Shown piece after piece: positions 6,187-64,000 of a DNA stretch of 64,000 bases. How positions within the stretch are numbered: position 1 is the first letter of the stretch; each line of letters starts with the position of its first letter. The DNA is taken from the NCBI GenBank assembly GCA_009392915.1, contig CP045477.1, positions 128,001-192,000 on the forward strand, read 5' to 3'. The notes under the pieces were generated by a model that did no database searches, was not told the origin of the DNA, and saw only the letters and a program-made list of their open reading frames with translations. Source of the DNA: Candidatus Forterrea multitransposorum CG_2015-17_Forterrea_25_41. Its GTDB lineage: Archaea; Iainarchaeota; Iainarchaeia; Iainarchaeales; CSSED10-239. Position numbers and translations under genes: made by a program.

Positions 6187-6189
6187 AAA

Positions 6190-30610: not shown

Positions 30611-33600
30611 ATGAGTAAAAGATATTTTACAATAATTTTCTTTATATTTCTAATAATAGGTTTATCTGTTCCTATTTTTTCTGCAGAAATAAACCTAAAT
30701 CCTTCTAAAACTTATTACTACAACCAAGAAATTAATCTAGGAACAACTTCTCTTCCAGAAGAAACTTTCTATGTAAACCTAAAAATAACTTCTGAAAACA
30801 GAACTTTATTTGAAAGAGATTTTTTAAAAGAAGAAGCTTTTAACATCCCTTTTATCTTTCAAGACTTCTACCCTTCTTCTTTAACTTTAACTTATAATTA
30901 TTTTTCAGTTTCTAAAGATTTACTTGAAACAAAAGAAGCTAATTTACTTTTAACAAAACTAAACCAAGAGATTGAATATTTTTTCTGTAATGAAATTGAA
31001 TGTGAAAAAGAACTTTTTGATGTTATTGAAGAAAATAAAGATTTCTATCTTTCCTCTTCTCTAAAAAACATGTCTTTTACAGTAAAGATAACTTCACAAG
31101 ATTATTTAAAAGACTACAAAGAAGTATCTTTACCTTTAAAACTTAATTTAAAAGAAGGAGTTTATTCTTTAGAGATTTCAACACTTCTTGATGATTCAAT
31201 ATTTTCAAAGACTTTAGATATTATTGTAGTCTCACAAGATCAGATTTCTTCTCCTGAAAACAATCCTTCAGGTCTTGAAGGTTTAGGTTCTGGTGTTCAA
31301 GGTGTTCCTTCTCAAAATATTTTTCAAAAAATAAAAAGTAACAGCTTACAAGATAATTTAAGAAGCTATTGGTATATTCTTTTAATAATTATTATTTTAT
31401 TATTTTTAATATTTAAAAAAAGAAAAAAAGAACCTATGCAAGAAAATATTAAAAAAGAAAGTTCTCTTTCAAGAAGAGAAGCAAGAAAAATACATTTATT
31501 TATATTATTAATAATTATTTCTTTATTTTCACAAATTACTTTTGCAAACTTTGTTGATAAAGAATACGAGTTTAGTTACTTTACAGATGATTATAAACTT
31601 TTAGAAAAAAACTTTCCTCAAGAAAACGAAATTTCTTTATATCTTACAAATTTAAAGCAAACTAATTCTTATTTTTTACCTTTAATAAACCATACAAACC
31701 AATCTTTAGTTTATTCTCAGAAAAAAGAACTTTATCAAGGAACACTAGAATACATTCCAATATATTCTTTATTTGCAATTGATATAAATAAATCACAAGG
31801 AAATTATGCTCCTTTCTTGCCAAATGAACAATATTCTCAATATTGTAAACCAGTTTTAGATTATTTTAAAAATCATCCTGTTAGTACAAAAGTAGATTTA
31901 ATAAACAGAAATAAATTTTATTTAACAAATTATATTGGTTTTTCAAAAGAATGTATAGATGAGCTTATCTCTAAAAGATGGCTTCAAGAAAAATATGTTT
32001 TAGCAGAAATTAAATATTCTCCTAAAGATTTTGATAATCAATCAAAAATTATTCAAGAAGAATTATTTTTTGAAAGTGATTTATTTTCAGATTCATTAAC
32101 TCTTCCAATAAACATTATTAAAACAGATTCTGCAATTGTCTACACTTATCCAGATCCAAAAAACTATAATAGCATAAGACTTGAAGTTGAGGAAAATGGT
32201 TGGATCTTAAGTAATAGAGTAAATTATCCTTATAGTTTTACAGAAATGGAAGAAGTTTTTACTTTTAATTTAACTGAAGGTGCTTTTGGGTCCTTTAGAT
32301 ATACTCTTAATAATTATAATGAAAATTTTGCAGATGTTACTGTTAATTATTTAGATAAAGAAGAATCTTTATCTTTTAGTAATTTTTTACCATCAAGTTA
32401 TTTTTCTATAAATGATGGTAATTTTAATACAGATGTTATAAGTAAATTAAATAGAAATAATGGTCATTTAATATTTAACAATTATCAATTATATAATGTT
32501 GTGGAAAACAGAAGAAAAAGAAGATTATCAATAAATGATAATTATCAAGATTCTTTAAATGTTTTATCAAGAAAAGAATATTCTTTAGTATATACTCCTT
32601 CTTTTTATAATGAAAATAATTTTTATCTTCATTTAAATTCAGGAAAATACTTAAACCCAATAATTAAAGGTAACATGCATTTATTTTATGATGTTGATCC
32701 TTTACTTTTCAAAACCATTGATTTGTTTATGATAAATAATGATAATGGTAAATTTTATTTTTCAGAAAACATGGCAAACTATAATTATAGTACAACAAGT
32801 TTTCTTCTAGAAAACGATACTCTTAAAATCAATGAAATATATTCTTCAAAAGACTATACTTCTTTCCATATTCTTTTTAAAGATGAAAATGTTCCTATAG
32901 TAATTTCAACAGATAGAAAAAATATTCTTTCAACAAACGATCCTTATTTTTATATTTATAAAGATTATTTTATAATGACTTTAAATGGTACTTTAAGAGT
33001 TTATAAAAATAAAAATATAAATATTACAGAAAAAGTAAACACTTATAGTAATTATGATGATAAATTTTTAACATTAACAGGCAGAAATCCTAATTTTGAT
33101 AAAAATCAAAACATTTATTTTACAAATAATCTAAAATTATTTAATGACTATATATATGATGTCTCAACAGCACAAGACCTATCTTTAATTGAACAAAAAG
33201 TATTTTGGGCAAATTCTTTTAAAAAAGCAGACTTAGAAGTTGATGATTGGTTCTCTGAAAATAGTTTTTGTGATTCTAATCTTTTAATGGAAGATTTTAA
33301 TAAAGTTTCAGAAAATCTAAAAAGACTAAATTTTACAATTCTTAAGTACCCTAATCTTAATTTAACTCCTTTTAGTAATGTTTTAGAAAATACTAAAAAC
33401 TATATTATTCCAAGAAACACTTTTACAAAAGAAAATTATGATTTTTTATGTAATTATACAAAAGAAGATTCTTTTAGAAACTATTCTAATATTATTTTAA
33501 ATTCTTCAGAATATTTAAATGATCAAAATAGTTTTATTGAACAACTTTCTTTTTTCCAAACTCCAATCTCTCAAATCTATCCTGGTCCTGATAATTATAA

Positions 33601-34480
33601 AGCTAAATATTTATCTGATTATTTTACTTCTTATAAAGAAGGTATTATTTTTATAGATGAAAATAATATTATTAAGGGTGCTTCTTCTCTTAATTTTAAG
33701 GATGATTATTCTTCAGTAATTGATTTCTTTTCAAATTATTTAGTGTTTGACAGATTATCTATCTTTTATCCTGATAATTTAGTTTTTAGTTTTGAAACTT
33801 CTGAAAATTTAGCAACTAGAAATTATATTAGAAATAATTTTTTAAAAGATAAAGAAAAATTATCTCTAAAATTTAAACTTCCAAAAAGAAGTGATGAGTT
33901 AGATGAAGATTATATTTATGAAAGATTTATTTTTCAAGATAGAGTAAATAATTATGTTGGTAATTGTACAAGGTTAAGTTTAGATGTTGCAAGAAAATAT
34001 ATCTATAACAATGTACGTAATTTTTCAGAAGATAACTCTTGGTGGGGTTCAGATTATAGAAGAGAAGATGCTTGGTTTCTTGCAAAAGAAAATCAAGTTA
34101 TTTGGAATCATGAAAATGATCTTCCTTTAAATCAAGAAAATGTTTTTGAAGGTGTTGTTTTAGGGGTCTATATTGGTTCAACAGAATACACTTATAGTCC
34201 TGATTCAACAGTTCTTATTAGAGCTGGAAAAACTTTTAAAGATCTAGAATACACACATACTATGCCATATCTTGATAATTATAAAAATAAAACAGGAATT
34301 ACTCTTAATGCAGGTTCAAGAAGTGTTAGTGTTGAAAACGCTTTTGAGTATACTTCTTCTTATGGAAGAGAATTAAGAGAGATAATTGTTCCTAGAAATT
34401 TTTATGATAATAAAATAAAAGATAAGTATGGTAAAACAGAACTTGATTATGTTAAAGAATATTTAACTTCTTTTGACTAA
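30611..34480 (+). CDS. Giant secreted/membrane-associated protein (1289 aa), hypothetical
   Basis: N-terminal signal peptide and two internal hydrophobic segments (about aa 250-270 and 300-320); N-glycosylation sequon-rich; no catalytic motif recognised. Confidence 0.4.
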   Translation: MSKRYFTIIFFIFLIIGLSVPIFSAEINLNPSKTYYYNQEINLGTTSLPEETFYVNLKITSENRTLFERDFLKEEAFNIPFIFQDFYPSSLTLTYNYFSVSKDLLETKEANLLLTKLNQEIEYFFCNEIECEKELFDVIEENKDFYLSSSLKNMSFTVKITSQDYLKDYKEVSLPLKLNLKEGVYSLEISTLLDDSIFSKTLDIIVVSQDQISSPENNPSGLEGLGSGVQGVPSQNIFQKIKSNSLQDNLRSYWYILLIIIILLFLIFKKRKKEPMQENIKKESSLSRREARKIHLFILLIIISLFSQITFANFVDKEYEFSYFTDDYKLLEKNFPQENEISLYLTNLKQTNSYFLPLINHTNQSLVYSQKKELYQGTLEYIPIYSLFAIDINKSQGNYAPFLPNEQYSQYCKPVLDYFKNHPVSTKVDLINRNKFYLTNYIGFSKECIDELISKRWLQEKYVLAEIKYSPKDFDNQSKIIQEELFFESDLFSDSLTLPINIIKTDSAIVYTYPDPKNYNSIRLEVEENGWILSNRVNYPYSFTEMEEVFTFNLTEGAFGSFRYTLNNYNENFADVTVNYLDKEESLSFSNFLPSSYFSINDGNFNTDVISKLNRNNGHLIFNNYQLYNVVENRRKRRLSINDNYQDSLNVLSRKEYSLVYTPSFYNENNFYLHLNSGKYLNPIIKGNMHLFYDVDPLLFKTIDLFMINNDNGKFYFSENMANYNYSTTSFLLENDTLKINEIYSSKDYTSFHILFKDENVPIVISTDRKNILSTNDPYFYIYKDYFIMTLNGTLRVYKNKNINITEKVNTYSNYDDKFLTLTGRNPNFDKNQNIYFTNNLKLFNDYIYDVSTAQDLSLIEQKVFWANSFKKADLEVDDWFSENSFCDSNLLMEDFNKVSENLKRLNFTILKYPNLNLTPFSNVLENTKNYIIPRNTFTKENYDFLCNYTKEDSFRNYSNIILNSSEYLNDQNSFIEQLSFFQTPISQIYPGPDNYKAKYLSDYFTSYKEGIIFIDENNIIKGASSLNFKDDYSSVIDFFSNYLVFDRLSIFYPDNLVFSFETSENLATRNYIRNNFLKDKEKLSLKFKLPKRSDELDEDYIYERFIFQDRVNNYVGNCTRLSLDVARKYIYNNVRNFSEDNSWWGSDYRREDAWFLAKENQVIWNHENDLPLNQENVFEGVVLGVYIGSTEYTYSPDSTVLIRAGKTFKDLEYTHTMPYLDNYKNKTGITLNAGSRSVSVENAFEYTSSYGRELREIIVPRNFYDNKIKDKYGKTELDYVKEYLTSFD

Positions 34481-39515: not shown

Positions 39516-41327
39516 ATGGGTAAAACTTATTTAGAAACAATTAAATATTTAATTGTTGCAGATTTTCAAGTAGATGGTTTAGTTGAAAAACCAGATGTTA
39601 TTGGTGCTATTTTTGGACAATCTGAAGGTCTTTTAGGTTCACAACTTGATATTAAAGAACTTCAACAGAATGGAAAAATAGGAAGAATAGAAATTACAAC
39701 TAGTCATAATAACAATAAAACTTTTGGAACTTTAAAACTTCCATGTTCTCTTTCAATGGTTGAAACTGTAATCATAGGTGCATCTATTGAATCTATTGAT
39801 AAAGTTGGTCCATGTGACACTAGATTTACTATTAAGAAAGTAGAAGATACAAGAGGACTTAAAAGAAAACAAATTAAAGATAGAGCAATTGATCTTTTAG
39901 GAAAATTAATGCAAGAAGAAATTCCTGACACAAAAGAGCTTATGGAAGAAATTGTTGATACTTTTAAAACAAAAGAAATTGTTTTTTATGGTCCAGATAA
40001 ACTTCCAGCAGGCCCAACAATTGATGCAAATAAAGAAATTATTATTGTTGAAGGAAGAGCAGATGTAATAACTATGTTAAAATATGGATTTACAAATGTT
40101 ATTTCAACTGGTGGTGCTAGAGTTCCAGCTTCTCTTGCAAATATTTGTAAAGATAAAATGGTAACTTTATTTTTAGATGGAGATAGAGGTGCTGATATTC
40201 AACAAAATCAACTTGTAAGAGCAATTAAAGTTGATTATATTGCAAGAGCTCCAGATGGAAAAGAAGTTGAAGAATTAACACAAAAAGAAATTAATCAAGC
40301 ACTTAGAAGAAGAATTAAATCAACTTTTGTTTTAGATTTAAAAGATAAAAGTAAAGATGATAGAAATTCTAAAAGTTTTTCAACTCAACCAAATATTGTT
40401 AAAAATACTAAATTTTCAACAACAAATGATCATAAAGTAATTTCTTCAAGACCAAGCTTTGATTCAAGACCTAAGTTTGATGGAAATAGAAGAGATGATA
40501 GAAGAGATGATAGAAGAGATGATAGGTTTAAAGAAAAACCTGTAAATGATTTTTCAAGTATGCTTTCAAATATTCCTGATGTTGAAAGAATTGATGTTTC
40601 TAATGAAAGATCTAACTTTAGAGATAATAATAGAAATAAACATAATTCATTTCAAAAAGAAAGACCAAACTATGATAGAAACTCTAAATTTGATTCTTCT
40701 AAAAAGACTTTTGATTCTAAAAAGACTTTTGATTCAAGAAAACCTTTTGACTCAAAAAATAATTTAGAGGCTGATAAAGCATTAAATAAACCTTCTCAAA
40801 CTAAAATAACTTTAAAAGATAGACTTGAGAGTGCTTTAAAAGAATTTGATAGTAAATCACAAGGAGATAAGTCTTTAAAAGAAAGTGTTTCTGAATCTAT
40901 TGATAAAAAAATAAATACTTCTCTAAAAACTGAAGCTTCTTATCCTGTAAAAGCAGCTGAAGCTTTAAATAAACCAAAAGAAGAAGTTAAAGTAGAGGTT
41001 AAAAAGAAAAAACCTCTTGCAAAGATTACAGAAAAAAGTAAAAAGAATTTTTTAAAGATTCTAGAAGAAGTTGATGGTAAAGGACAATCTAGAATTTTAA
41101 ATGAAAAATTAAGAAGGATAGGAAGTTCAAAGAGTAGTGAACTTTTATCTAAAATAAAATCTTTTAAAACTGGTAAGATTTTTGCAGTTGTAACTGATCT
41201 TGAAGTTGATGTTGAGATTTTAAAACTTTTAAAAGAAAAAGATGCTTCTTTTATTGTTTCTCCAAAATCTAAAATTAAAGAAGATCAAGAGATAAACATT
41301 GTAACTTACAATGAATTAAAGAAATAG
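39516..41327 (+). CDS. dnaG: Archaeal DNA primase DnaG (Toprim) with a long low-complexity C-terminal extension
   Basis: N-terminal KYLIVADFQVDGLVEKPDVIGAIFGQSEGLLG and the Toprim IIVEGRADV..DGDRGAD. The C-terminal about 280 aa is R/D/K/S-rich with (RRDD)x3 and (KKTFDS)x3 repeats. Confidence 0.75.
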   Translation: MGKTYLETIKYLIVADFQVDGLVEKPDVIGAIFGQSEGLLGSQLDIKELQQNGKIGRIEITTSHNNNKTFGTLKLPCSLSMVETVIIGASIESIDKVGPCDTRFTIKKVEDTRGLKRKQIKDRAIDLLGKLMQEEIPDTKELMEEIVDTFKTKEIVFYGPDKLPAGPTIDANKEIIIVEGRADVITMLKYGFTNVISTGGARVPASLANICKDKMVTLFLDGDRGADIQQNQLVRAIKVDYIARAPDGKEVEELTQKEINQALRRRIKSTFVLDLKDKSKDDRNSKSFSTQPNIVKNTKFSTTNDHKVISSRPSFDSRPKFDGNRRDDRRDDRRDDRFKEKPVNDFSSMLSNIPDVERIDVSNERSNFRDNNRNKHNSFQKERPNYDRNSKFDSSKKTFDSKKTFDSRKPFDSKNNLEADKALNKPSQTKITLKDRLESALKEFDSKSQGDKSLKESVSESIDKKINTSLKTEASYPVKAAEALNKPKEEVKVEVKKKKPLAKITEKSKKNFLKILEEVDGKGQSRILNEKLRRIGSSKSSELLSKIKSFKTGKIFAVVTDLEVDVEILKLLKEKDASFIVSPKSKIKEDQEINIVTYNELKK

Positions 41328-44481: not shown

Positions 44482-44590
44482 ATTTTTTTACAAAATCCTT
44501 ATATTTATAAATATTATGCCTAACATATAAGTATAATATATTTTAATAAATGATAGCTGATGTTTATAGATAGAATAAAAATTCAAAGAA
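44482..44590 (+). repeat. About 110-bp promoter/leader repeat, copy 1; identical copy at 47411-47519
   Basis: An identical string (AAAATCCTTATATTTATAAATATTATGCCTAACATATAAGTATAATATATTTTAATAAATGATAGCTGATGTTTATAGATAGAATAAAAATTCAAAGAAA) includes a TTTATAAA TATA box and the first 10 codons of the downstream gene. Confidence 0.85.
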
Positions 44591-46044
44591 AGGTACAACC
44601 TTTTTTTGAAAAAAATGTTAACGAAAAAAGAAAAGCTATTAGTCCACTTATAGCAACCATTCTTTTAGTGGTTGTTGCCATAGCTATAATCGGTATTGTT
44701 CTTTCCTGGGGTAAAGGTTTTACAAACACAACTCTTTCTTCTGCAGATAATATTAATACCAAAAATTCTTTCACAGGTCTTGTTTGGTCTTTTGAAACTT
44801 TTGGAAATAATGTCTTGGTTGAAAATAAATCAAAACAAGATTTAAACATTACTGGTTATACTATTAACTCTCTTGATCATAATGGTTTTTGGATAAACTC
44901 ATATCATCCTTTAGAAACTACTTTATCAATTTCTCCTGGAACTTCAAACAATGTTCCTTTGATCTGTATGCCTGAGGGAAAATTTATTTTAACTCTAAAG
45001 ACATCCTCAAATGAAAATATACCTCTTAACATCTCTCCTTCGAAAACACTTTTAGGAGGAACTTGTGAAGAATATAATGTTTCTCTTTGGGAATTTGCAG
45101 CAGAAACTGGAAGTTATGAGATTAATGAGATTGCTTTAGAGCAGGGTAATAATTATAGTAATTATAATTTTTTATTTAGTTGGACTGAAGTAAGTGCTAC
45201 TATAAATGATTCTAATACATTTAGTTCAACAAGTGTTGGTGGAATCACTAAGCAAACTACATGGATGGAGGTAGGTAAGAGATATAAATTAAAAATTTCA
45301 GGGACAACAACCGCTTCAGGAATAGTTATATTTTCTGGAAACAACGGAACATATATAGGTTCTTTAACTACTGGCAATTTTAGTCAAACATTTAAAAAAA
45401 CAATACTTGCTGTAAATCCTGGTTTAGACTTATATATAAGGAATTCATCAGCAGGAGTTACAACAATTACTGAATTGTCAGTAATAGAAATTCCTCCCCT
45501 TCCTGATTTTAACACAGGCACAAAATATTTACAAAATACTACTTCAGGAACAACTGCTATTGAAAGTAAACAAGCTTATGGTGAATGGGAGTTTGATGTT
45601 TATAAAGGTAGTACATTAACCAATTCATTTGTAAAAATAATCTCAGATGCCATAATAGGCAGCGTAGGTGGAAATTCTTATACTATTCAATTTAATGTAG
45701 ATGAAGCATTAAAGTTATGGAGAGGTGGCACTGCCATTATGAGTACAGCAAATTCCTACATCTCCAAAAACACTTGGTACAGAATAAAAGTAGCAAGACT
45801 TCAAAGTTCTGGAACATTTGCAATTATAGTTCCTTCGATGACCACAACCTATCCAAAAGACACATTTGCAGTTTTCATAAAAGGTGGGGAGTTTGGAGAT
45901 GATTGGACTTTAGTAGATACAACAGGTGGAAGTGGAACAAACCCTGTCACAGACTCTACATACACTACAAGCAATTATTTTGTTGCAGACCTTGATGTTG
46001 GAGATAGAATAGCAAATATTAAAATGAAGGAGAGTGTTGACTAA
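44560..46044 (+). CDS. Class-III-signal-peptide (archaeal type-IV-pilin-like) surface protein, paralog 1
   Basis: Leader ...EKRKA|ISPLIATILLVVVAIAIIGIVL is the prepilin-peptidase substrate motif (K/R-A/G then a hydrophobic helix); about 460-aa extracellular domain rich in Thr/Ser/Asn. Confidence 0.6.
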   Translation: MFIDRIKIQRKVQPFFEKNVNEKRKAISPLIATILLVVVAIAIIGIVLSWGKGFTNTTLSSADNINTKNSFTGLVWSFETFGNNVLVENKSKQDLNITGYTINSLDHNGFWINSYHPLETTLSISPGTSNNVPLICMPEGKFILTLKTSSNENIPLNISPSKTLLGGTCEEYNVSLWEFAAETGSYEINEIALEQGNNYSNYNFLFSWTEVSATINDSNTFSSTSVGGITKQTTWMEVGKRYKLKISGTTTASGIVIFSGNNGTYIGSLTTGNFSQTFKKTILAVNPGLDLYIRNSSAGVTTITELSVIEIPPLPDFNTGTKYLQNTTSGTTAIESKQAYGEWEFDVYKGSTLTNSFVKIISDAIIGSVGGNSYTIQFNVDEALKLWRGGTAIMSTANSYISKNTWYRIKVARLQSSGTFAIIVPSMTTTYPKDTFAVFIKGGEFGDDWTLVDTTGGSGTNPVTDSTYTTSNYFVADLDVGDRIANIKMKESVD

Positions 46045-46045
46045 A

Positions 46046-47383
46046 ATGTTTTCAAAAGTAAATAAAAAAGCTATTAGTCCACTTATAGCAACCATCCTTT
46101 TAGTGGTTGTTGCCGTAGCTATCATCGGTATTGTTCTTTCTTGGGGAAAAGGCTTTACAAACACAACTCTTTCAAAAGCTTCAAGTATTGAAGTTTATTC
46201 AGAATCAGAAATTGGTTTTTATTTAAATCTTCAAAACTCAATAAACGGAAGAACCACAGTTTCTTATAACCCTCCACAAAATACTACTTATAATAATCTA
46301 ACAATAGTTGGTTATGGCCTTTTAGGATATACAACAAACATAGTTCCTTTAGAACCTCCAATAACTATTTCAAAATCACAAACTGCAAATATTGATCATG
46401 GTATAATTTTACCTGAATTTGATTTAGTTTTATATTTAGATAACAATACTATGATAACTAAATTTAATTTAAAACAAGAAATTAAACAACCTTCTTCTTG
46501 TCCTGAAGGTTTTATTCCAGTTCCTGGAAATCATTTATATGGAACCATGAATGAAAGAGGTGGTTTTTGTGTAATGAAATATCATGCAAAAAATGACACT
46601 GGCTCAAAAATAAATTCAACTTGTATAACAGGTCTAGAAGGTTCTGATAGTAATCTAACAGTTAAATCAGTTCCAGAAATTGCTCCTTCAGTAAATATAA
46701 ATTATTGTGCTGCAAAAAAATCTTGTGAAAATTCAGGATATATTTTAATGAATAATTCTCATTGGATGACTATTGCAAGAAATATTGAACTAAATGAATT
46801 AAATTATGTTTCTGGAAATCTAGGTGAAGGCTTTATTTTTAGAGGGCATTATAATAATAATCCATCTTTAATTATTGAAGCAAATTCAGATGATTCAAAT
46901 AATTTTTATTTAATAAACAGTCCAAACTCAGATCAAAGAAGAACTTTATATTTATCTAATGGAGAAATAATTTGGGATTTTACTGGAAATGCATGGAATA
47001 TATTAGAAGATTTAGTTTTAATAAAGGATCATGCAGATGGTTTTTATACTTCTGATGATACTGAGTTTAATTCTGGTAATGATAATTTATTTCTAACGGA
47101 TTATTATAAAGGTAGTAATAATTATTATTTAAAATTTAATCAATTAGGTAATACTATTTTTAATTATAAAGATATTTATTTATTAAATTCAAAATACAAT
47201 GCTGTAAATAATGGTATTGGTATTTACCATGGAAATAGTAATAGAGGAAGTGTTTCTGAAACTATTACTTTTATGATGAGAGGTGGAGATAAACAAAATG
47301 GTCAATATTCTGGTTTAATGGAATTAACATTCCCTAATTTAAGTTCTAATGGAAATACAGTTGGATTTAGATGTGTGAAATAA
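46046..47383 (+). CDS. Class-III-signal-peptide surface protein, paralog 2 (short leader)
   Basis: MFSKVNKKA|ISPLIATILLVVVAVAIIGIVLSWGKGFTNTTLS is identical to the pilin module of paralogs 1 and 3. The remainder is unrelated and Cys-rich. ATG lies 2 nt after the paralog 1 stop; the track start at 46034 is a GTG. Confidence 0.55.
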   Translation: MFSKVNKKAISPLIATILLVVVAVAIIGIVLSWGKGFTNTTLSKASSIEVYSESEIGFYLNLQNSINGRTTVSYNPPQNTTYNNLTIVGYGLLGYTTNIVPLEPPITISKSQTANIDHGIILPEFDLVLYLDNNTMITKFNLKQEIKQPSSCPEGFIPVPGNHLYGTMNERGGFCVMKYHAKNDTGSKINSTCITGLEGSDSNLTVKSVPEIAPSVNINYCAAKKSCENSGYILMNNSHWMTIARNIELNELNYVSGNLGEGFIFRGHYNNNPSLIIEANSDDSNNFYLINSPNSDQRRTLYLSNGEIIWDFTGNAWNILEDLVLIKDHADGFYTSDDTEFNSGNDNLFLTDYYKGSNNYYLKFNQLGNTIFNYKDIYLLNSKYNAVNNGIGIYHGNSNRGSVSETITFMMRGGDKQNGQYSGLMELTFPNLSSNGNTVGFRCVK

Positions 47384-47410: not shown

Positions 47411-47519
47411 AAAAATCCTTATATTTATAAATATTATGCCTAACATATAAGTATAATATATTTTAATAAATGATAGCTGATGTTTATAGATAGAATAAAA
47501 ATTCAAAGAAAAGAAAAAA
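47411..47519 (+). repeat. About 110-bp promoter/leader repeat, copy 2
   Basis: Identical to 44482-44590. Confidence 0.85.
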
Positions 47520-49333
47520 CTTTTTTTGAAAAAAATGTTGACAAAAAAAGAAAAGCTATTAGTCCACTTATAGCAACCATCCTTCTTGTAGTTGTTGCTG
47601 TTGCCATCATCGGTATTGTTCTTTCTTGGGGAAAAGGTTTTACAAACACAACTCTTTCTTCTGCAGATAATGTTAATACCAAAAATTCTTTCACAGGTCT
47701 TATTTGGTCTTTTGAAACTTTTGGAAATAATGTTTTAGTTGAGAATAAATCAAAACAAGATTTAAATATTACTGGTTATACTATTAATTCTCTTGATCAT
47801 AATGGTTTTTGGATAAACTCTTATCATCCTTTAGAAACCACTCTTTCAATATCTCCTGGAACTTCAGATAATGTGTCTTTGATTTGTATGCCAGAGGGTA
47901 AATTTATTTTAACTTTAAAAACCTCAACAAATGAAAACATACCTCTTAACATCTCTCCTTCAAAAACAAGTAGAGGTTCTACTTGTGAGGAGTATAATGT
48001 TTCTCTTTGGGAGTTTGTAGCAGAAACTGGAAGTTATTCTATTAATACTTTTACAATGCAGGAAGGAGAACTTGTAACTAACGGTGGGTTTGAGACTGAT
48101 TTATCTGGTTGGTTAAGAACAAGTCATATTATTCAAAATAATGATGTTGCAGATGTTAATCTTATTGGCTCTGATTATATTTTAGAACAACAAAATGTTG
48201 TAGAAATGGGTAAAAGTTACTTAGTTACTTTTGAAATTAAAAACTATTATTCAGGTGCAGTTTATTTTTATAATGTTAATTTGCCAGGGGTAGGTAGTGG
48301 TTATACTGCAACTTCAAATGGGGTTTATGCACTAACATTTACATCTAGTGGAAATAACATCTTATTTCGAACTGTAACTAATTTTGTAGGATCTATTGAT
48401 AATATCTCAATAGTAGAAATCCCTCCTCTTGAAACAATAACCACAGGCACAAAATACTTAGAGAACACAACAGCAGGAACAACTGCTATTGAAAATAAAC
48501 AAGCTTATGGTACTTGGGAATTTGATGTTTATAAAGAAAATGCAAATTATCATTATACATATTTTATAAATTCTACCACAAATACAATGGATAATAGTTA
48601 TAGAATTACTTTAAAAAATTTTAATGCTTTAGATTTAAGAAAACAAGGTGATTCAACTTTAACATTATTATTAACTTCTGATAATTATATTCAAGATAAT
48701 ACTTGGTATAGAATAAAAGTTGCAAGACTTCAAAGCGAAGGTGTGTTTAACGACATACCTACTTTGCAGACTAGTGATATGGTGAATAGTGCAACACAAC
48801 CTTACCAATCATTTACAAGTAAGGGGAGATATGGATTCAGTGCTATTGCAAATGGAACTACAATTACTCATGCTAATACAGCAGATGAAATAGACCTTGT
48901 AAATACAGGAAAATACCTTGTAGAATTTGATTTAAAATTAAACAGCGGGATAGCCCCAGATGTAGCATTAGCAGCAAGTGTAACAAGTGGGTTGTATTCT
49001 AATTCAGTTCAATCTATTGTAGGGAGAAATAGTTTTATACTTACTGCAAGTAATTCAATTACAGGGATATTAAGGTTTTATAACAGTTCTACTGAGTCTG
49101 CAGACTACGAAGTTTCAAACTTAACAATCAGAAGAATCTACCCAAAAGACACATTTGCAGTATTTATTAAAGGTGGAGAGTTTGGAGATGATTGGACTTT
49201 AGTAGATACAACAGGTGGAAGTGGAACAAACCCTGTCACAGACTCTACATATACAACAAGCAATTACTTTGTAGCTGACCTTGATGCTGGAGATAGAATA
49301 GCTAATGTTAAAATAAAACCAAATATTGAATAA
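47480..49333 (+). CDS. Class-III-signal-peptide surface protein, paralog 3, with a central CBM4/9-like carbohydrate-binding-type module
   Basis: First about 190 aa and last about 65 aa are nearly identical to paralog 1. The central region begins NGGFETDLSGWL, reminiscent of CBM_4_9 N-termini. Confidence 0.6.
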   Translation: MFIDRIKIQRKEKTFFEKNVDKKRKAISPLIATILLVVVAVAIIGIVLSWGKGFTNTTLSSADNVNTKNSFTGLIWSFETFGNNVLVENKSKQDLNITGYTINSLDHNGFWINSYHPLETTLSISPGTSDNVSLICMPEGKFILTLKTSTNENIPLNISPSKTSRGSTCEEYNVSLWEFVAETGSYSINTFTMQEGELVTNGGFETDLSGWLRTSHIIQNNDVADVNLIGSDYILEQQNVVEMGKSYLVTFEIKNYYSGAVYFYNVNLPGVGSGYTATSNGVYALTFTSSGNNILFRTVTNFVGSIDNISIVEIPPLETITTGTKYLENTTAGTTAIENKQAYGTWEFDVYKENANYHYTYFINSTTNTMDNSYRITLKNFNALDLRKQGDSTLTLLLTSDNYIQDNTWYRIKVARLQSEGVFNDIPTLQTSDMVNSATQPYQSFTSKGRYGFSAIANGTTITHANTADEIDLVNTGKYLVEFDLKLNSGIAPDVALAASVTSGLYSNSVQSIVGRNSFILTASNSITGILRFYNSSTESADYEVSNLTIRRIYPKDTFAVFIKGGEFGDDWTLVDTTGGSGTNPVTDSTYTTSNYFVADLDAGDRIANVKIKPNIE

Positions 49334-57711: not shown

Positions 57712-58821
57712 ATGAGTTTTACAATTACAAAAAAAGATAAAAAAACAAATGCAAGAATTGGTATTTTTAAAACTAATCATGGAACCATAAAGACTCCTTT
57801 TTTTATGCCAGTTGTAACTAAAGGAATTGCAAAGTTTATAACTTTAGATATTTTAGATGATATTAAAACACAATGTTTTATTTCAAATTGTTATTTATTA
57901 TACTTAAAACCAGGAAAAGAACTTTTAGAAAAAACAAAAGGTTATCATAATTTTATAAATTGGAAAAAACCTATTTTTACAGATTCTGGTGGGTTTCAAC
58001 TTAAAAATCCAAGTTTTTTTATATCAATGAATGATAAAGGAGTTTGGTTTAAATCTCCTTTTGATGGATCTAAACATTTTATGTCTCCTGAAAAAGTAAT
58101 TGAGATGCAGAATGTTATTGGTTCTGATATTGCAATGATATTAGATGATATGCAAGATGCTAATCTTTCAAGAGAAGCTTATGAAATTGCAACTGATAGA
58201 ACTATAGCTTGGGCAAAAAGAGCTATCCTTGCACATAAAAATAAGAAGCAAATGCTTTTTGGAATAGTTCAAGGTGGTGTATATAAGGATTTAAGAGAAA
58301 AATGTGCAAAAGAAATAAATAAACTTCCATTTGATGGTCTTGCAATTGGTGGACTTGCTTTAGGTGAGCCTAAAGAATCCATGCATAAAGCAATTGATTA
58401 TTCTTTAAAACATTTAGATGAAGAGAAAATAAAATATTTAATGGGTTTAGGATCTCCAGAAGACATTATTGTTTCAATTGGTAAAGGAGTTGATTGTTTT
58501 GATTCTATATATCCTACAAAAATGGCAAGACATGGTTTTATTTTTACAAGAAAAGGTCCTATTTTTTTAAAGAAAGCAAAATATAAAGATGTTTTTGAGC
58601 CTATTGAAAAAGATTGTGATTGCCCTACTTGTAAAAGGCATACACTTGCATACCTTCATCATCTTTTAAGACTTGATGAGCCAGGTGTTAAGATTCTTTT
58701 ATCTATTCATAATATTAGATTTTTACATAGGCTTTTAGAAGATTCTAGAAAAGAAATAGAAAAAGGAACTTTTGAGAGTTTTCAAAAGAAATTTTTAAAA
58801 GAATTTAAAAAAAGAGATTAA
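57712..58821 (+). CDS. tgt: tRNA-guanine transglycosylase family protein (catalytic domain only)
   Basis: FTDSGGFQL, LGLGSPED, and zinc site CDCPTC..H; 369 aa with no PUA-type C-terminal domain. Confidence 0.7.
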   Translation: MSFTITKKDKKTNARIGIFKTNHGTIKTPFFMPVVTKGIAKFITLDILDDIKTQCFISNCYLLYLKPGKELLEKTKGYHNFINWKKPIFTDSGGFQLKNPSFFISMNDKGVWFKSPFDGSKHFMSPEKVIEMQNVIGSDIAMILDDMQDANLSREAYEIATDRTIAWAKRAILAHKNKKQMLFGIVQGGVYKDLREKCAKEINKLPFDGLAIGGLALGEPKESMHKAIDYSLKHLDEEKIKYLMGLGSPEDIIVSIGKGVDCFDSIYPTKMARHGFIFTRKGPIFLKKAKYKDVFEPIEKDCDCPTCKRHTLAYLHHLLRLDEPGVKILLSIHNIRFLHRLLEDSRKEIEKGTFESFQKKFLKEFKKRD

Positions 58822-59325: not shown

Positions 59326-59994
59326 TTAAATAAGATTGTTTTCTTTAAATGAGAAATATTTTTGATTTGTAATTATTAAATGATCTAAAAAAGTTATCTC
59401 TAAAAGCTTGCAAGCTTCTTTTATTTTTGTCGTAGCTATTTTATCTTCTCTTGAAGGATAACATTCTCCTGAAGGGTGATTGTGTGCTATGATTATTGCT
59501 TGAGCATTTTCTTTTAAAGCTTCTTTTAATATTTCTTTTTCAGAAACTAAGGTTTGGTTATCTGTTCCAATAGTTATTATTTTTTTTGAAATAACTTCGT
59601 TTCCTTTTAGAAATAGTGTGATTAAATGTTCTTGTTCTTTATTTTCAATATCATGTCTTAATATTTCATATGCTGTTTTTGGAGAATAAATTTTTTCTGA
59701 AGTTTTTATATTTTTTATAGATATCCTTTTGTAAAGTTCTATGATTGCTTTTATTTGAGAGGCTTTTACAATACCAATACCTTTTATCTTAAGAAGTTGA
59801 TTAATTGATATATTTTCAAGATCTTGAAAGGTATATCTTGAAAGAATCTGGTTTGATATATCTAGAACATTATATTCTTTTGTTCCTGTCTTTAGAATGA
59901 TTGCTAGAAGTTCGCTATTTGATAGACTTTTTTCTCCATCTCTTGAAAGTCTTTCAAGAGGTCTGTTTTCTGGTGCTATATCTTTTAGTCTCAT
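59326..59994 (-). CDS. radC: RadC-like JAB/MPN-domain protein
   Basis: HhH-like N-terminus and the JAMM motif IIIAHNHPSGECYPSREDKIATTKI. Confidence 0.7.
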   Translation of the reverse strand: MRLKDIAPENRPLERLSRDGEKSLSNSELLAIILKTGTKEYNVLDISNQILSRYTFQDLENISINQLLKIKGIGIVKASQIKAIIELYKRISIKNIKTSEKIYSPKTAYEILRHDIENKEQEHLITLFLKGNEVISKKIITIGTDNQTLVSEKEILKEALKENAQAIIIAHNHPSGECYPSREDKIATTKIKEACKLLEITFLDHLIITNQKYFSFKENNLI

Positions 59995-60140
59995 TTTATT
60001 TAAAAAAGAAAATAAATATTTCTCTCCACTAATAAATATACTTAATCCTTTATTTAAGGGAGGGGAAAAAAAGGTCTTTCCATAAAAGAAAGTACCTTTC
60101 TAATAGATGCATATTTCTAAATAATATATATCCTTTAACA

Positions 60141-60190
60141 AATATATCTCTTTTCAAGCAGGGGGTAGCTGGCCGAGTAAATTAATTTAG
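60141..60190. repeat. GC-rich island repeat, copy R1
   Basis: AATATATCTCTTTTCAAGCAGGGGGTAGCTGGCCGAGTAAATTAATTTAG; also present at 60856-60905 and, slightly diverged, at 61942-61986. Confidence 0.9.
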
Positions 60191-60513
60191 TATTTAAATC
60201 TCTTTTCATAACTTTTATGATTAAACCATTCTATAATAATAGATATAATTTTAATTTGATCACTTTTAATTGTGTATACTAATCTCCATCCATTAAATAG
60301 ATTATATTTCCAAAGGTTTGTAATTTTATATTTTTTAATATATTCTTTTGGCCATAATTTTTTTGAAATTTTAATTCCAGAAGTAGGATCTTTTTTAAGA
60401 GTTTCAATTGCTTTTAGAATATTTTTATACAAATCATGATTTTCTTTAAGGTTTTCAAAATTAATTTCTAATTCTCTTGAAACAAATACAACATAATTTT
60501 CTTTATCAATCAT
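60187..60513 (-). CDS. RelE/ParE-superfamily toxin-like protein
   Basis: ..NILKAIETLKKDPTSG...LWKYNLFNGWRLVYTIKSDQIKIISIIIEWFNHKSY fits the RelE/ParE fold; 4-nt overlap with the upstream small gene. Confidence 0.5.
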   Translation of the reverse strand: MIDKENYVVFVSRELEINFENLKENHDLYKNILKAIETLKKDPTSGIKISKKLWPKEYIKKYKITNLWKYNLFNGWRLVYTIKSDQIKIISIIIEWFNHKSYEKRFKY

Positions 60514-60779
60514 CTTAATTTAACACCTAAAGATAATATTTTTGAAATATTTTTTTTATCATATATCCAAATTACAATATTATCTTTATCAATAATAATC
60601 TTACTAGATTCTTCTAGATATTCAAGAATTATTTTGTATGTCTGATACATCATTTTTTTAGGTATTTTTTTCCATAATTGATAGATAGTATACTGAGAAC
60701 TATATTTTTTAATAGTATTTTCAACCATTAAGATACTCTCAAGCTTTGGACTATGATATTTTATTTTTTCTTTAGGCAT
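60510..60779 (-). CDS. Putative antitoxin/partner of the RelE-like gene (89 aa)
   Basis: Translationally coupled upstream ORF. I place the start at the internal ATG (MPKEKIKY...) because the track start is a TTG lying inside repeat R2. Confidence 0.35.
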   Translation of the reverse strand: MPKEKIKYHSPKLESILMVENTIKKYSSQYTIYQLWKKIPKKMMYQTYKIILEYLEESSKIIIDKDNIVIWIYDKKNISKILSLGVKLR

Positions 60780-60855
60780 ATTATATAACTTTATATAAGT
60801 TAAATTTTTAAATATTTTTATTTGCCTAAAGTATATATTAATATGTGTTTTAAAA

Positions 60856-60905
60856 AATATATCTCTTTTCAAGCAGGGGGTAGCTGGCCGAGTAAATTAA
60901 TTTAG
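60856..60905. repeat. GC-rich island repeat, copy R2
   Basis: Identical to R1 over about 50 nt. Confidence 0.9.
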
Positions 60906-61904
60906 AACTTTTTTTAATTCTTTTTCATTTGGTAAAAATGTACTTAATTTTTTAGGAATTTTAGATAATTTGTATTCTGCTATTCCTAATGGATATTTAT
61001 TATTTAATAAAGAATATTCTACTATTGTCTTATTCTTAGATTTACATATTAATAATCCAATAGTTTCTTTATCTTCTTTTCTTTTCATATCTTTATTTAT
61101 TACATTAATATAAAACCCTATTTGGCCAAGATATTCTGGTTTGAATTCAGTAATTTTTAATTCAATTACTATAAATCTTTTTAAAATATAATTATAAAAT
61201 AATAAATCTATATAAAAATCTTTATTTCCAACATTAATTTTAAATTGTTTTCCAATAAATGCAAATCCTTTTCCTAATTCTATTAAAAATTTAGATATAT
61301 TTGAAACAATAGATTCTTCTAATTCTTTTTCATTAAATTCTTCTTTTAAATGTAAAAAATCTAATATATAATTTTCTTTAAAATAATTTAAAATAAATTT
61401 TGAATCTTTTTTTGGAAGTGTGTTTAAAAAATTAATGTTTATGTTTTTTTTTCTTGCATATAAATTTAATTCTATTTGATGTTCTAATAATACTTTAGAC
61501 CATAAATTATTAATTGATTCTTGAATATAGAAAAGTGCTTCTTCTTTATTTTTAATTTTATCTAGAATTAATCTTATTTGATTCCAAGGTAATTGTGCCA
61601 CAACTTGTGGCACATTTTCTGTTTTAAAAAATAAATAGAATTTTCTCATATAAAATAAATTTCTTCTCGAAAAACCTTTTACATTAGGGAATTCTTTTCT
61701 TAAATCTTTTTCTATTTGCCCAATTAAATTTATTCCCCAATTACTTTCTTTTTGTTTAAAATAAATTTCTTTTCCAAGAGTGTAATAAAGATTAATTAAT
61801 TCTGAATTTACTTTTAATATTGCATTTTGTCTTGATTTAATAATGTTTTCTTTAATTTTAGAAATAAATTCTATATATTCTTTATTAAATATATTTTTTT
61901 CCAT
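60897..61904 (-). CDS. DUF1016/YhcG-family PD-(D/E)XK nuclease
   Basis: ..VAQLPWNQIRLIL ... GKGFAFIGKQ ... FYIDLLFYNYILKRFIVIELKITEF.PEYLGQIGFYIN has the YhcG-family layout (D...ELK core). Confidence 0.55.
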   Translation of the reverse strand: MEKNIFNKEYIEFISKIKENIIKSRQNAILKVNSELINLYYTLGKEIYFKQKESNWGINLIGQIEKDLRKEFPNVKGFSRRNLFYMRKFYLFFKTENVPQVVAQLPWNQIRLILDKIKNKEEALFYIQESINNLWSKVLLEHQIELNLYARKKNININFLNTLPKKDSKFILNYFKENYILDFLHLKEEFNEKELEESIVSNISKFLIELGKGFAFIGKQFKINVGNKDFYIDLLFYNYILKRFIVIELKITEFKPEYLGQIGFYINVINKDMKRKEDKETIGLLICKSKNKTIVEYSLLNNKYPLGIAEYKLSKIPKKLSTFLPNEKELKKVLN

Positions 61905-61941
61905 ATCTTATCTATTCTAGATATATTTTATATTTTTACAA

Positions 61942-61986
61942 AAATATATCTCTTTTCAAGCAGGGGGTAGCTAGCTGAGTAAAAAA
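61942..61986. repeat. GC-rich island repeat, copy R3 (3' part diverged)
   Basis: AAATATATCTCTTTTCAAGCAGGGGGTAGCTAGCTGAGTAAAAAAG, in the divergent intergenic region between 60897-61904 (-) and 62084-63298 (+). Confidence 0.85.
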
Positions 61987-62083
61987 GATTAAATTTTAAT
62001 TTCTATAGCCAATAACCTACATTAACATTATAAACTCTTTCTCTCTTAAATATATTATTAAATATAAAAAATAAGATTATATT

Positions 62084-63298
62084 ATGAGATATTCACATTC
62101 TTCCATGGAGACTTTTAGAAATTGTCCTCTTCAATTTAAATATAAGTATATTGAAAAAGTAGATATACCTATTAAAAATAATATAGAAGCATTCATGGGT
62201 TCAATGGTCCATAATACTTTAGAAAAATTATATACAGATCTAAAATATAATAAATTATTATCTTTAGATGAAGTATTAGATTATTACAATAAATCTTGGA
62301 CAGATAATTTTTCATTTGATAAAGTAGAAATTATAAGAGAAGGTTATACTGAAGAAAACTACAAGTCTTTAGGTCAAGATTACCTAAAAAATTATTATAA
62401 TACTTATAAACCTTTCAATCAAGGAAAAACTATTGGCCTTGAAATGCAAGTAAATATTTCTTTATATGATAAAGAAAGACAAAAAACTTATGATCTTATA
62501 GGTTATATTGATAGACTTTCTTTAGTTTCAGATAATCATATAGAAATTATAGATTATAAAACAAATAATTCTGCAAAAACTCAACAAGAGGTAGATGTTG
62601 ATAAACAACTTGCTCTTTATTCTATAGCAATTAAAGAAAAATTTCCTTTTGTTGAAAAAATAGATCTTTGTTGGTTTTTTTTGTCAGCTGGTATAAAACA
62701 AGTTTCAACAAGAACTGTAGATGATTTAGAAAAATTAAAACAAGAAACAATAGAAATTATAAGGGAGATCGAAGATTCTAAGCAAAAAAATAATTTTCCA
62801 GGTAAACCTTCTGCTCTTTGTGATTGGTGTGCTTTTAGGTCAATTTGTCCTTTTAAAGCACACGATGTTATTACTAAAAATCTTTCAGAAAATGAATATT
62901 TAAAAGAAGAGGGTGTTTTCTTAGTTGATAAGTATCAAGAATTTACTGAAAAAAAGAAAGCTTTACTTGATGAAATTGATCCAGAGATTGAAAAGGTAAA
63001 AGAAGCAATAATTAATTATTCTAAAAAGAATAATTTAGAAAAGCTTTTTGGAAAAGAAAAATCTTTAATTGTAAAAGAATATTCTTCTTTTAAAATACCT
63101 GAAAAAAAATCAAAAGAAAGAGAAGAACTTGAAGCTCTTTTAAAGGAAAATAATTTTTGGCCTTTTGTTTCTGATCTTTCATATATAGAAATTTCAAATC
63201 TTATAAAAAATGGTTTTTTTGAAAGTTCTTTTAAAGAAAAACTTTTAAAATATTTAAAAGAAGAAAAAATAAATAGACTTTATTTAAATAAAAAATAA
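62084..63298 (+). CDS. PD-(D/E)XK nuclease-family protein (PDDEXK_1 / Cas4-RecB-like) with a C-terminal Cys cluster
   Basis: N-terminal YSHSSMETFRNCPLQFKYKYI; IDYKT (D-x-K) core; C-x2-C-x5-C (CDWCAFRSICP). Confidence 0.55.
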   Translation: MRYSHSSMETFRNCPLQFKYKYIEKVDIPIKNNIEAFMGSMVHNTLEKLYTDLKYNKLLSLDEVLDYYNKSWTDNFSFDKVEIIREGYTEENYKSLGQDYLKNYYNTYKPFNQGKTIGLEMQVNISLYDKERQKTYDLIGYIDRLSLVSDNHIEIIDYKTNNSAKTQQEVDVDKQLALYSIAIKEKFPFVEKIDLCWFFLSAGIKQVSTRTVDDLEKLKQETIEIIREIEDSKQKNNFPGKPSALCDWCAFRSICPFKAHDVITKNLSENEYLKEEGVFLVDKYQEFTEKKKALLDEIDPEIEKVKEAIINYSKKNNLEKLFGKEKSLIVKEYSSFKIPEKKSKEREELEALLKENNFWPFVSDLSYIEISNLIKNGFFESSFKEKLLKYLKEEKINRLYLNKK

Positions 63299-63300
63299 TT

Positions 63301-63564
63301 TTATTTATTTCTCATAAAAAACTCTAAAACTTCTTGTTTAGTTTTACCTGTTTTTTCTGCAACTTCTTTAATAATAATTTCTACAAATTTAGAAGATACT
63401 ACTTTATTTCCTTTTTTTAAAATTATTTCTCTACCATGACTATCTCTAAAAACAATATGTCTATGGTTTCCTTTTTCCTTTTCAAAACCAAGTTTATTGT
63501 ATATTCTTTCAAGTTGTTCTGGTCTTAATGTTGAAGGTTTTTTTCCATTAAAAGGTTTTGCCAT
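63301..63564 (-). CDS. HicA-like toxin (YcfA family), tentative
   Basis: ..LERIYNKLGFEKEKGNHRHIVFRDSHGREIILKKG..VSSKFVEIIIKEVAEKTG follows the HicA pattern (GSH...h.....p.h...k.i..g.l..il). Confidence 0.4.
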   Translation of the reverse strand: MAKPFNGKKPSTLRPEQLERIYNKLGFEKEKGNHRHIVFRDSHGREIILKKGNKVVSSKFVEIIIKEVAEKTGKTKQEVLEFFMRNK

Positions 63565-63578
63565 TTTTAATCTTTCCT

Positions 63579-64000
63579 TTATTTAAAATCCATATTTATT
63601 TTAATTTCTTCTAAAACAGCAGTAATAAATTCATTTAAGGGTATATTTAGTTTAGTTTCACATAATCTTATTTCTTCTCTTGAAACAGCTGCTGCAAATG
63701 TTTTGTCTTTAAATTTTTTAATAATAGATTTTGTTTCTGCATTTTTAATTTCTTTATCTGGTCTCATTAAAACATATGCTCTAATAATTCCAGTTAAGCC
63801 ATCTACAGAAAAGAGAGCATTTTCTACAGTTTCTTTTCTTTCTATTTTCAAAGCATCGTTATGTGATTTAATAATATCTATTATCTCTTGAGAGATTCCT
63901 TCTTCTTGTAATATTTTTTCTCCAACTAAACAATGCACATTAATATCTCCATTATATTTTTCAATATCAATGTCATGGAGTGCACCAATCAAAAACCATT
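63579..64000 (-). CDS. HD-domain phosphohydrolase, C-terminal part; partial, continues beyond the window end
   Basis: ..WFLIGALHDIDIEKY...H..GEKILQEEG.SQEIIDIIKSHND is the HD/HDIG signature. The track 'M' is a TTG and the frame stays open to nt 64000. Confidence 0.5.
   Translation of the reverse strand, partial: WFLIGALHDIDIEKYNGDINVHCLVGEKILQEEGISQEIIDIIKSHNDALKIERKETVENALFSVDGLTGIIRAYVLMRPDKEIKNAETKSIIKKFKDKTFAAAVSREEIRLCETKLNIPLNEFITAVLEEIKINMDFK

Follow-up and report, generated by a model that had tools for sequence, protein, structure and literature searches.

Which part of a small, repeat-punctuated block of nuclease and toxin-like genes in a DPANN archaeon is accessory, and how is it turned over? 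The question is raised by the 3′ end of a 64,000-nt stretch of Candidatus Forterrea multitransposorum (contig CP045477.1, positions 128,001 to 192,000; the whole stretch is called the window), where an earlier note, made from the letters alone, had described positions 59326-64000 as an island of short transcription units separated by three copies of one GC-rich repeat, here called element E. DPANN genomes are tiny, and the gain and loss of their accessory genes is little understood; this locus offers a model that can be followed by comparing relatives. Gene neighbourhoods were examined for ten homologues of its PDDEXK_1 nuclease gene, in a survey of about a dozen species (loci of other strains and species are designated L001 to L028). 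The explanation that we favour, and hold to be probable though by no means certain, is that 60134-61990 is a two-cassette array in a conserved intergenic hotspot between the divergent genes RadC and PDDEXK_1, and that the array is turned over by recombination of E with E.

The genes on both sides of the cassettes were found to be conserved. The order tgt, a 150-aa gene, RadC, a slot of changing content and PDDEXK_1 was kept in relatives down to 59% protein identity. RadC and PDDEXK_1 flanked the slot in eight relatives (59-84% identity), and RadC was syntenic in L011, L012, L013, L016, L020, L022, L025 and L027. The homologues of PDDEXK_1 were full-length proteins of ~400 aa with identities of 99, 84, 78, 74, 68, 59, 50 and 41%, first in Iainarchaeota and then in other archaeal lineages, and this smooth gradient is thus the pattern of a vertically inherited gene. 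On the far side of PDDEXK_1, a HicA-like gene and an HD gene ~14 nt apart recurred nearby as a pair in three relatives (L013, L018 and L025), and the arrangement of the pair followed by Laminin_G genes was kept down to the 59% species. Because both the order from tgt to PDDEXK_1 and the pair are conserved, these genes are core and not island, and four of the six gene units of the supposed island belong to the core genome. The variable part is 60134-61990 only (1.9 kb), with a toxin gene and its antitoxin-like partner, A, in one cassette and a YhcG/DUF1016 nuclease gene in the other. The earlier note had also seen an abrupt change after tgt and units on alternating strands; composition does not change there, the order tgt, 150-aa gene, RadC is conserved, and every unit except PDDEXK_1 lies on the minus strand.

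The three copies of E in the window (E1 to E3, Table 1) were confirmed as direct repeats, against zero expected from shuffled sequences. Element E is 45-57 nt long. Its first part is AT-rich and strongly conserved, (A/G)ATATATCT(C/T)TTTTCAA, and its second is a GC box, GGG.T.C.TG.CCGAG. A single copy in the same orientation lay between RadC and PDDEXK_1 in L011, L012, L013, L016, L017, L020 and L025, from species 59-84% identical, and E3 is the positional orthologue of the single E of cassette-free relatives. The element is specific to this locus and is not a genome-wide intergenic motif: no further copy was found in the rest of the window, in the 8 kb beyond its edge (profile search) or elsewhere in the species-representative metagenome-assembled genome (MAG). 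A scan of representative genomes returned the E core only at this locus of one Candidatus Iainarchaeum MAG, together with a chance match in a GC-rich Myxococcota contig. Across 304 kb of compared loci, 38 of 40 E matches fell in the slot between RadC and PDDEXK_1, and the other two represent one Bro-N-linked copy, in L025 and the near-identical locus L026. At that site (L025 6283-7443), PDDEXK_1 and SpoIIM are separated by an insert made up of a 52-aa gene, the Bro-N gene and an E-like copy, with a 30-nt direct repeat of its own, TCTTTTCTTAAATCAATTTATTTATATATTT, on both sides; it is a second repeat-flanked insertion that carries an E-type module.

The number of E copies followed the number of cassettes. 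Slots were empty, with one E, in L012 (72%; these percentages are PDDEXK_1 identities to the window), L016 (78%), L017 (74%), L020 (73%) and L025 (59%). L027 had two copies around one composite unit and the window has three around two cassettes, while in L022 three copies of an E version specific to that species bound two ORF6N cassettes; the ATGs of these cassettes directly adjoin E, and a TATA-like box lies ~27 nt upstream of them. The slot held a KTSC gene in L011 (84%), a truncated HATPase_c_4 gene in L013-L015 (68%), an AlbA_2-HATPase_c_4 gene and the two ORF6N genes in L022 (65%), an orphan copy of the antitoxin partner in L018 and L019 (72%), and YhcG with the antitoxin partner in L027 (75%). 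All cargo was on the minus strand in every species compared. The HATPase_c_4 protein (gene at 6083-6832) has 160, 223 and 219 aa in the three near-identical contigs L013-L015, compared to 468 aa with AlbA_2 in L022, and the cargo of L013-L015 appears to be decaying as well. A second variable slot, beyond RadC, was noted in several relatives: genes of a VapBC-like toxin-antitoxin pair (PIN_2 and RHH_12) were found at L016 9-680, L020 198-431, L022 222-995 and L027 5061-5720, both genes in L016, L022 and L027 and RHH_12 only in L020. In L022 and L027 the pair separates RadC from the 150-aa gene, two genes that are direct neighbours in the window, which has no such pair.

Loss, reordering and decay of cassettes were seen when close and more distant relatives were aligned. 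L005, at 97-98% nucleotide identity, is without exactly the toxin-antitoxin unit and one E (715 bp), and its single E is flanked on the left as E1 is and on the right as E2 is. The order is RadC, E, YhcG, a 9-codon toxin remnant, A, E, PDDEXK_1 in L027 and RadC, E, toxin, A, E, YhcG, E, PDDEXK_1 in the window; despite the swap, the junction between E and the YhcG stop codon and that between the upstream region of A and E are homologous in the two. Identity between the window and the L027 cassettes was 82% for YhcG and 74% for A, which is within the core-gene range of 50-86%, and the cassettes would therefore be of long standing, with rearrangement, loss from other lineages and ongoing decay. 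YhcG was disrupted in three of five strains ~98% identical (L003, L005 and L008), with PDDEXK_1 intact; the other neighbouring genes were intact in these five strains, except for the 150-aa gene in L006. The homologues of YhcG had identities of 98, 97, 82 and 82% and then 65% or less, and the named members below this drop come from diverse Bacteria. Judged from the broken reading frames and from its patchy occurrence among homologues, YhcG is an accessory gene in a decaying cassette.

The intergenic region natively carries one E, and in the window species there are three direct copies with one cassette between each pair; the units behave as discrete cassettes, each ending in E. We propose that cassettes have been lost, reordered and probably gained as E copies recombined with each other. 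An excised cassette would form a circle with one E, which could reintegrate at any E, such that recombination of direct copies would account for the deletion and, via the circular intermediate, for the reordering. Most likely this is general homologous recombination on identities of 45-57 nt, because no recombinase was found, because E forms no hairpin and because the block of identity shared by E1 and E2 includes the last 9 nt of native YhcG sequence. A fixed crossover core fits this last observation less well than target-sequence duplication or gene conversion. On the minus strand, E looks like a GC box followed by a transcription factor B recognition element (BRE) and a TATA box, and in L022 the distance of ~27 nt to the cassette ATGs would suit leaderless transcripts; E may thus supply or accompany a minus-strand promoter for each unit.

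Several observations weigh against this explanation. The deletion in L005 could reflect an assembler that skipped a loop at the 57-nt repeat, and the divergence of the cassettes fits long vertical residence, in which case mobility may be rare. A recombinase was not found in 72 kb, and the gain of a cassette was never directly observed. In L011 and L013 cargo is present and just one E could be recognised, so E duplication is not always tied to cargo. The two ORF6N cassettes of L022 are paralogues, ~50% identical in their N-terminal parts, with similarity that runs from E into the coding sequence, and one of the E copies there may therefore stem from a tandem duplication. Finally, AT-rich sequence belonging to the cassettes themselves also separates E from the ATG in the window, and the promoter role of E is a matter of sequence resemblance only.

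A dedicated integron-like platform, in which E is the attachment site for a site-specific recombinase encoded elsewhere or, speculatively, for the PDDEXK_1 nuclease in the position of intI, would explain the layout of the array, with repeats that are near-identical within a genome and different between species, co-oriented cassettes, and, in every species, an array that is headed by a conserved gene with divergent transcription. It would also explain cassette order that is shuffled between species with conserved junctions between cassettes and E, and toxin-antitoxin and nuclease cargo is typical of integrons (PMC9668308). However, E showed no hairpin on either strand when 101-nt windows around each copy were folded as DNA (-2.5 to -7.9 kcal/mol; z-scores from +1.1 to -0.7), which rules out an attC-type hairpin, and nothing within the repeat can pair with the GC core. 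When all three copies were inspected together with their flanks, no conserved R′/R′′ cores of the GTTRRRY type were seen at the boundaries. No integrase or tyrosine or serine recombinase was matched by Pfam among window open reading frames (ORFs) of at least 150 aa or among the called genes of the next 8 kb, that is, in 72 kb altogether, and no transposase was recognisable in the window. Conservative site-specific recombination is not known to be catalysed by PD-(D/E)XK nucleases, arrays hold only one or two cassettes, and the extension of the E1/E2 identity into YhcG fits a fixed crossover core less well than it fits target-sequence duplication or gene conversion. We thus consider such a platform unlikely. 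A more far-reaching form of it would be a previously undescribed capture site of Iainarchaeota, in which a non-palindromic element of 45-100 nt beside the Cas4/RecB-like nuclease serves as a reusable attachment site and promoter while small toxin-antitoxin, nuclease and DNA-binding cassettes are inserted, shuffled and excised by a dedicated recombination activity; this we regard as improbable.

Other identities for E were also considered. The GC core superficially resembles the 5′ end of a tRNA, but ARAGORN and Rfam (gathering threshold, and E <= 10 on 59950-62150) were empty at and next to the repeats, and a tRNA-fragment att site was dropped also because E is orthologous intergenic sequence in all relatives. 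The same Rfam searches found no known RNA family for E. A small ORF across E was rejected on inspection, as there is no start codon and the frame is broken by indels between species. A dif/Xer-type or origin-recognition-box-type site was set aside since E is without dyad architecture, and no Pfam match to orc1/cdc6 was found among the genes scanned. A diverged, inverted copy of the GC box was noted just upstream of the TATA box of PDDEXK_1, at 62003-62020 in the window, ~6913-6935 in L013, ~4930-4946 in L025 and ~2680-2697 in L027. Its complementarity to the GC box is a perfect 17 bp in L013 and significant in L025 and L027, whereas the window and six other species were no better than shuffles; a test of cognate against non-cognate pairs gave p about 0.04, driven by L013. 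A GC-box hairpin at this position as a general feature was thus ruled out by comparison with shuffled sequences.

It is likewise unlikely that E is purely cis-regulatory, such as an operator joined to a promoter and bound by the winged-helix antitoxin or by some other transcription factor, so that its multiplication would be promoter duplication and, apart from accidental deletions, unrelated to cassette turnover. The strongly conserved, TATA/BRE-like AT-rich part with the adjoining GC box fits such a role, as do the position of E directly 5′ of the cassette ATGs in L022, the E-like copy directly 5′ of the Bro-N gene at a different site in L025, and the prediction that the antitoxin partner is a DNA-binding winged helix-turn-helix protein. 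But it would leave unexplained why unrelated genes each gained the same element at one locus and why the order could be swapped with the junctions conserved, E is present in species without the antitoxin, and no E lies upstream of any other gene in the window.

The original reading, a defence island or decayed mobile element at 59326-64000 with YhcG and PDDEXK_1 as a two-nuclease system, is very improbable. The nuclease, toxin and HD annotations on which it drew were largely confirmed, YhcG matches the PADLOC candidate defence gene PDC-S02, and genes of mobile or defence type do occur with a locus-specific repeat, but only in the shorter segment between E1 and E3. The slot lies between RadC and PDDEXK_1 in eight relatives, three of which also have the HicA-like and HD genes nearby; YhcG is absent from most of these species and a pseudogene in three of five strains in which PDDEXK_1 is intact. 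The divergent pair of nucleases is adjacent only in this species, and the two are separated in L027; YhcG next to PDDEXK_1 is a positional accident and not a system. PADLOC matched YhcG (as a candidate) and gave weak Cas4-like matches for PDDEXK_1, with none for the other five proteins. Following the contig 8 kb past the window edge yielded neither an integrase nor a tRNA/att boundary at the repeats, and ARAGORN and Rfam found no tRNA at or adjoining them, the nearest being a tRNA-His ~8.5 kb away. GC and GC3 (GC content at third codon positions) of the cassettes match those of the host, with GC3 of 0.07-0.15 in cassette genes against 0.07-0.12 in neighbouring genes, which rules out a compositional island.

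Assembly artefact is scarcely credible as the source of the repeats and structural variants: contigs do break at E (L024 starts inside E, and L006 and L008 are split there) and a 57-nt repeat can make a loop in the assembly graph, but the three-copy layout recurs in independent NCBI, JGI and Logan assemblies and the E-free junctions of A, toxin remnant and YhcG in L027 are unique sequence.

Table 1. Features of the locus, in window coordinates
Feature	Position	Strand	Remarks
TGT	57712-58821		Pfam E 2e-132
RadC (UPF0758_N + RadC JAB)	59326-59994	-	Pfam E 1e-39; NCBIfam PRK00024 above cut-off; left boundary of slot
E1	60134-60190	+	AT-rich part AAATATATCTCTTTTCAA, GC box GCAGGGGGTAGCTGGCCGAG, then TAAATTAATTTAG; identical to E2 over 57 nt; contains toxin stop codon
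YoeB/RelE-superfamily toxin (cassette 1)	60187-60513	-	108 aa; weak matches to YoeB/ParE
Antitoxin-like partner A (cassette 1)	60510-60782	-	90 aa; stop overlaps toxin start by 4 nt
E2	60849-60905	+	between the two cassettes; contains last two YhcG codons and stop codon
YhcG/DUF1016 PD-(D/E)XK nuclease (cassette 2)	60897-61904	-	335 aa; YhcG_C E 5e-55, DUF1016_N E 2e-39
E3	61936-61988	+	nearest PDDEXK_1; two substitutions in GC box, different right flank
PDDEXK_1 nuclease, Cas4/RecB-like	62084-63298	+	404 aa; Pfam E 4e-34, 119 bits vs cut-off 22; right boundary of slot
HicA-like gene	63301-63564	-	87 aa; HicA_toxin E 0.045, 14.3 bits vs cut-off 27 (weak)
HDIG/HD gene	63579-64000, past window edge (full gene L001 11496-12059)	-	HD found only on full 187-aa protein

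The ORFs lie where the earlier note had placed them, and Pfam confirmed RadC, YhcG, PDDEXK_1 and TGT. Its RelE/ParE-like toxin with a coupled partner was borne out as to the coupling, by the 4-nt overlap, while the family match of the toxin was weak in each of three libraries that agree on it, with all scores below curated cut-offs: Pfam YoeB_toxin gave E 1.7e-4 (22.0 bits vs 27), NCBIfam TIGR02116 E 2.8e-4 (21 vs 51.8), and the PDB YoeB structure 7v6w E 1.4e-3 with the full length covered. Partner A had no Pfam match. Its family, for which there is no Pfam model, numbers ~121 proteins with lengths of 67-155 aa (mostly 85-104). Those that are named all come from DPANN archaea, with ~45-65% identity across named members from Woesearchaeota, Nanoarchaeota and Iainarchaeota, and many members lie on very short contigs. 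The AlphaFold model (predicted local distance difference test score 83.8) has the order H-H-H-beta-beta-H, and the top PDB fold matches were winged helix-turn-helix regulators with a probability of 0.9-0.99 but E >= 0.016, which is statistically weak; A is thus predicted to be a winged helix-turn-helix protein. A Woesearchaeota locus (L028 5001-5605) has the same pair with the same overlap, and the toxin gene there carries an unmarked Pfam YoeB_toxin match. This pair has no flanking repeats, and is thus no example of a repeat-bounded toxin-antitoxin unit in another phylum. An antitoxin family without a Pfam model, with a predicted winged helix, named so far only in DPANN archaea and paired with YoeB-like toxins, has now been identified.

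YhcG scored 135.6 bits for DUF1016_N and 186.2 bits for YhcG_C, against gathering cut-offs of 32.8 and 32.5, and its sequence contains IDLL...IELK, a motif of the D...ExK type. With a full-length match to PDC-S02 (E 3e-124), YhcG/DUF1016 is a candidate single-gene defence, and the cassettes would act as addiction or defence genes. A viral or plasmid source was looked for in IMG/VR, where the repeat core, YhcG and the antitoxin were without relatives.

The PDDEXK_1 protein has four Cys, at 14, 246, 249 and 255, and scored 29.8 for TIGR00372 cas4 against a cut-off of 65; since this is far below the cut-off, it is not a bona fide Cas4. For the two genes beyond it, the HD assignment of the earlier note held on the complete protein, and the HicA label leans mainly on orthologues, as L025 has an unmarked precomputed HicA_toxin match and L013 a weak one. 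The usual partner of HicA is HicB; a module in which an HD protein takes that place, next to the HicA-like gene as here, is unusual.

The rest of the window contains archaeal housekeeping genes, among them those for a thermosome, eIF-6, S19e, L31e, prefoldin, GatD/E-like proteins and aminoacyl-tRNA synthetases. On the 547-kb contig of NCBI assembly GCA_009993835.1, which includes the window, its edge is followed by the remainder of the HD gene, genes for two giant Laminin_G_3 proteins on either side of a 176-aa gene, and then tRNA-His and RuBisCO. In the first 58.8 kb (1-58821), 35 of 39 ORFs of at least 150 aa are on the plus strand, and orientation switches from 58847 onward. Cumulative GC skew peaks at 59-60 kb, at this switch, and the peak probably reflects gene orientation. 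Eight large ORFs of 445-1289 aa were without significant Pfam match (30611-34480, 28142-30544, 47480-49333, 39516-41327, 44560-46044, 46046-47383, 17583-18956 and 4792-6186); four were scanned at E <= 1e-6, and four (those starting at 28142, 17583 and 4792 and a 232-aa ORF at 2154) also at E <= 0.01, with sub-threshold matches only. Between RadC and E1, at ~60044-60105, lies a hairpin of A-run, GC stem and T-run followed by CCCTCCC on the minus strand, found in all eight aligned relatives; it looks like a bidirectional terminator, and has a weak folding energy and almost no covariation.

The locus offers one conserved site, a boundary element that tracks cassette number, cargo of addiction or defence type, and visible loss, reordering and decay. 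What emerges is a recurring, repeat-bounded cassette architecture at a conserved site of Iainarchaeota, 1.9 kb in extent instead of a 4.7-kb island. Ordinary homologous recombination on 45-57-nt repeats, if that is what drives the turnover, would show how a cassette array can form with no integrase at work; a dedicated enzyme, if there is one, would make the locus a gene-capture platform of a new kind. A literature search for cassette arrays or hotspots in DPANN archaea found nothing that describes this arrangement.

How does the array compare with known systems? Its second cassette resembles PDC-S02 of PADLOC over the full length of YhcG, and differs in being a decaying cassette, of putative defence function, in a DPANN archaeon. 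The first is like a type II YefM/YoeB module in having a small upstream gene that overlaps a YoeB-like toxin gene by 4 nt, a pairing kept in another DPANN phylum; unlike such modules, the antitoxin has no Pfam model, is named from DPANN archaea and has a predicted winged helix in place of YefM/Phd, and the similarity of the toxin to YoeB is weak. Archaeal integrons and clusters of attC sites lacking integron-integrases (CALINs) were reported from several archaeal phyla, DPANN groups among them, in a paper that makes no mention of Iainarchaeota (Ghaly et al. 2022, PMC9668308). Shared with these are short cassettes of one or two genes in one orientation (two minus-strand cassettes between three direct E copies, likewise in L022), a bounding repeat whose copies are near-identical in any one genome but have diverged from species to species, cargo of toxin-antitoxin and nuclease or defence genes, cassettes that are lost and reordered, and a conserved divergent gene at the head of the array. 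In contrast, E is not an imperfect palindrome and has no fold, no IntI was found in 72 kb (although a CALIN does not require one), E belongs natively to a chromosomal intergenic region and occurs once in relatives without cassettes, and the arrays have only one or two cassettes. Because the attC hairpin, the R′/R′′ cores and IntI were all looked for and none was found, the array is integron-like in layout but is not an integron. Tandem integrative elements at an att site share with it the direct repeats that bound the units, n+1 repeats for n units; here there is no tRNA target, no integrase was found, and the units of 0.66 and 1.03 kb are without mobility genes. Integration hotspots and defence islets between conserved core genes are a general concept, and the locus resembles them in holding variable accessory genes (toxin-antitoxin, YhcG/PDC-S02, AlbA_2-HATPase_c_4, ORF6N and KTSC) in one fixed slot. 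Unlike those, the slot is marked by a duplicated native E in place of a tRNA/att site with an integrase, and it spans at most ~3.2 kb from RadC to PDDEXK_1 (in L022).

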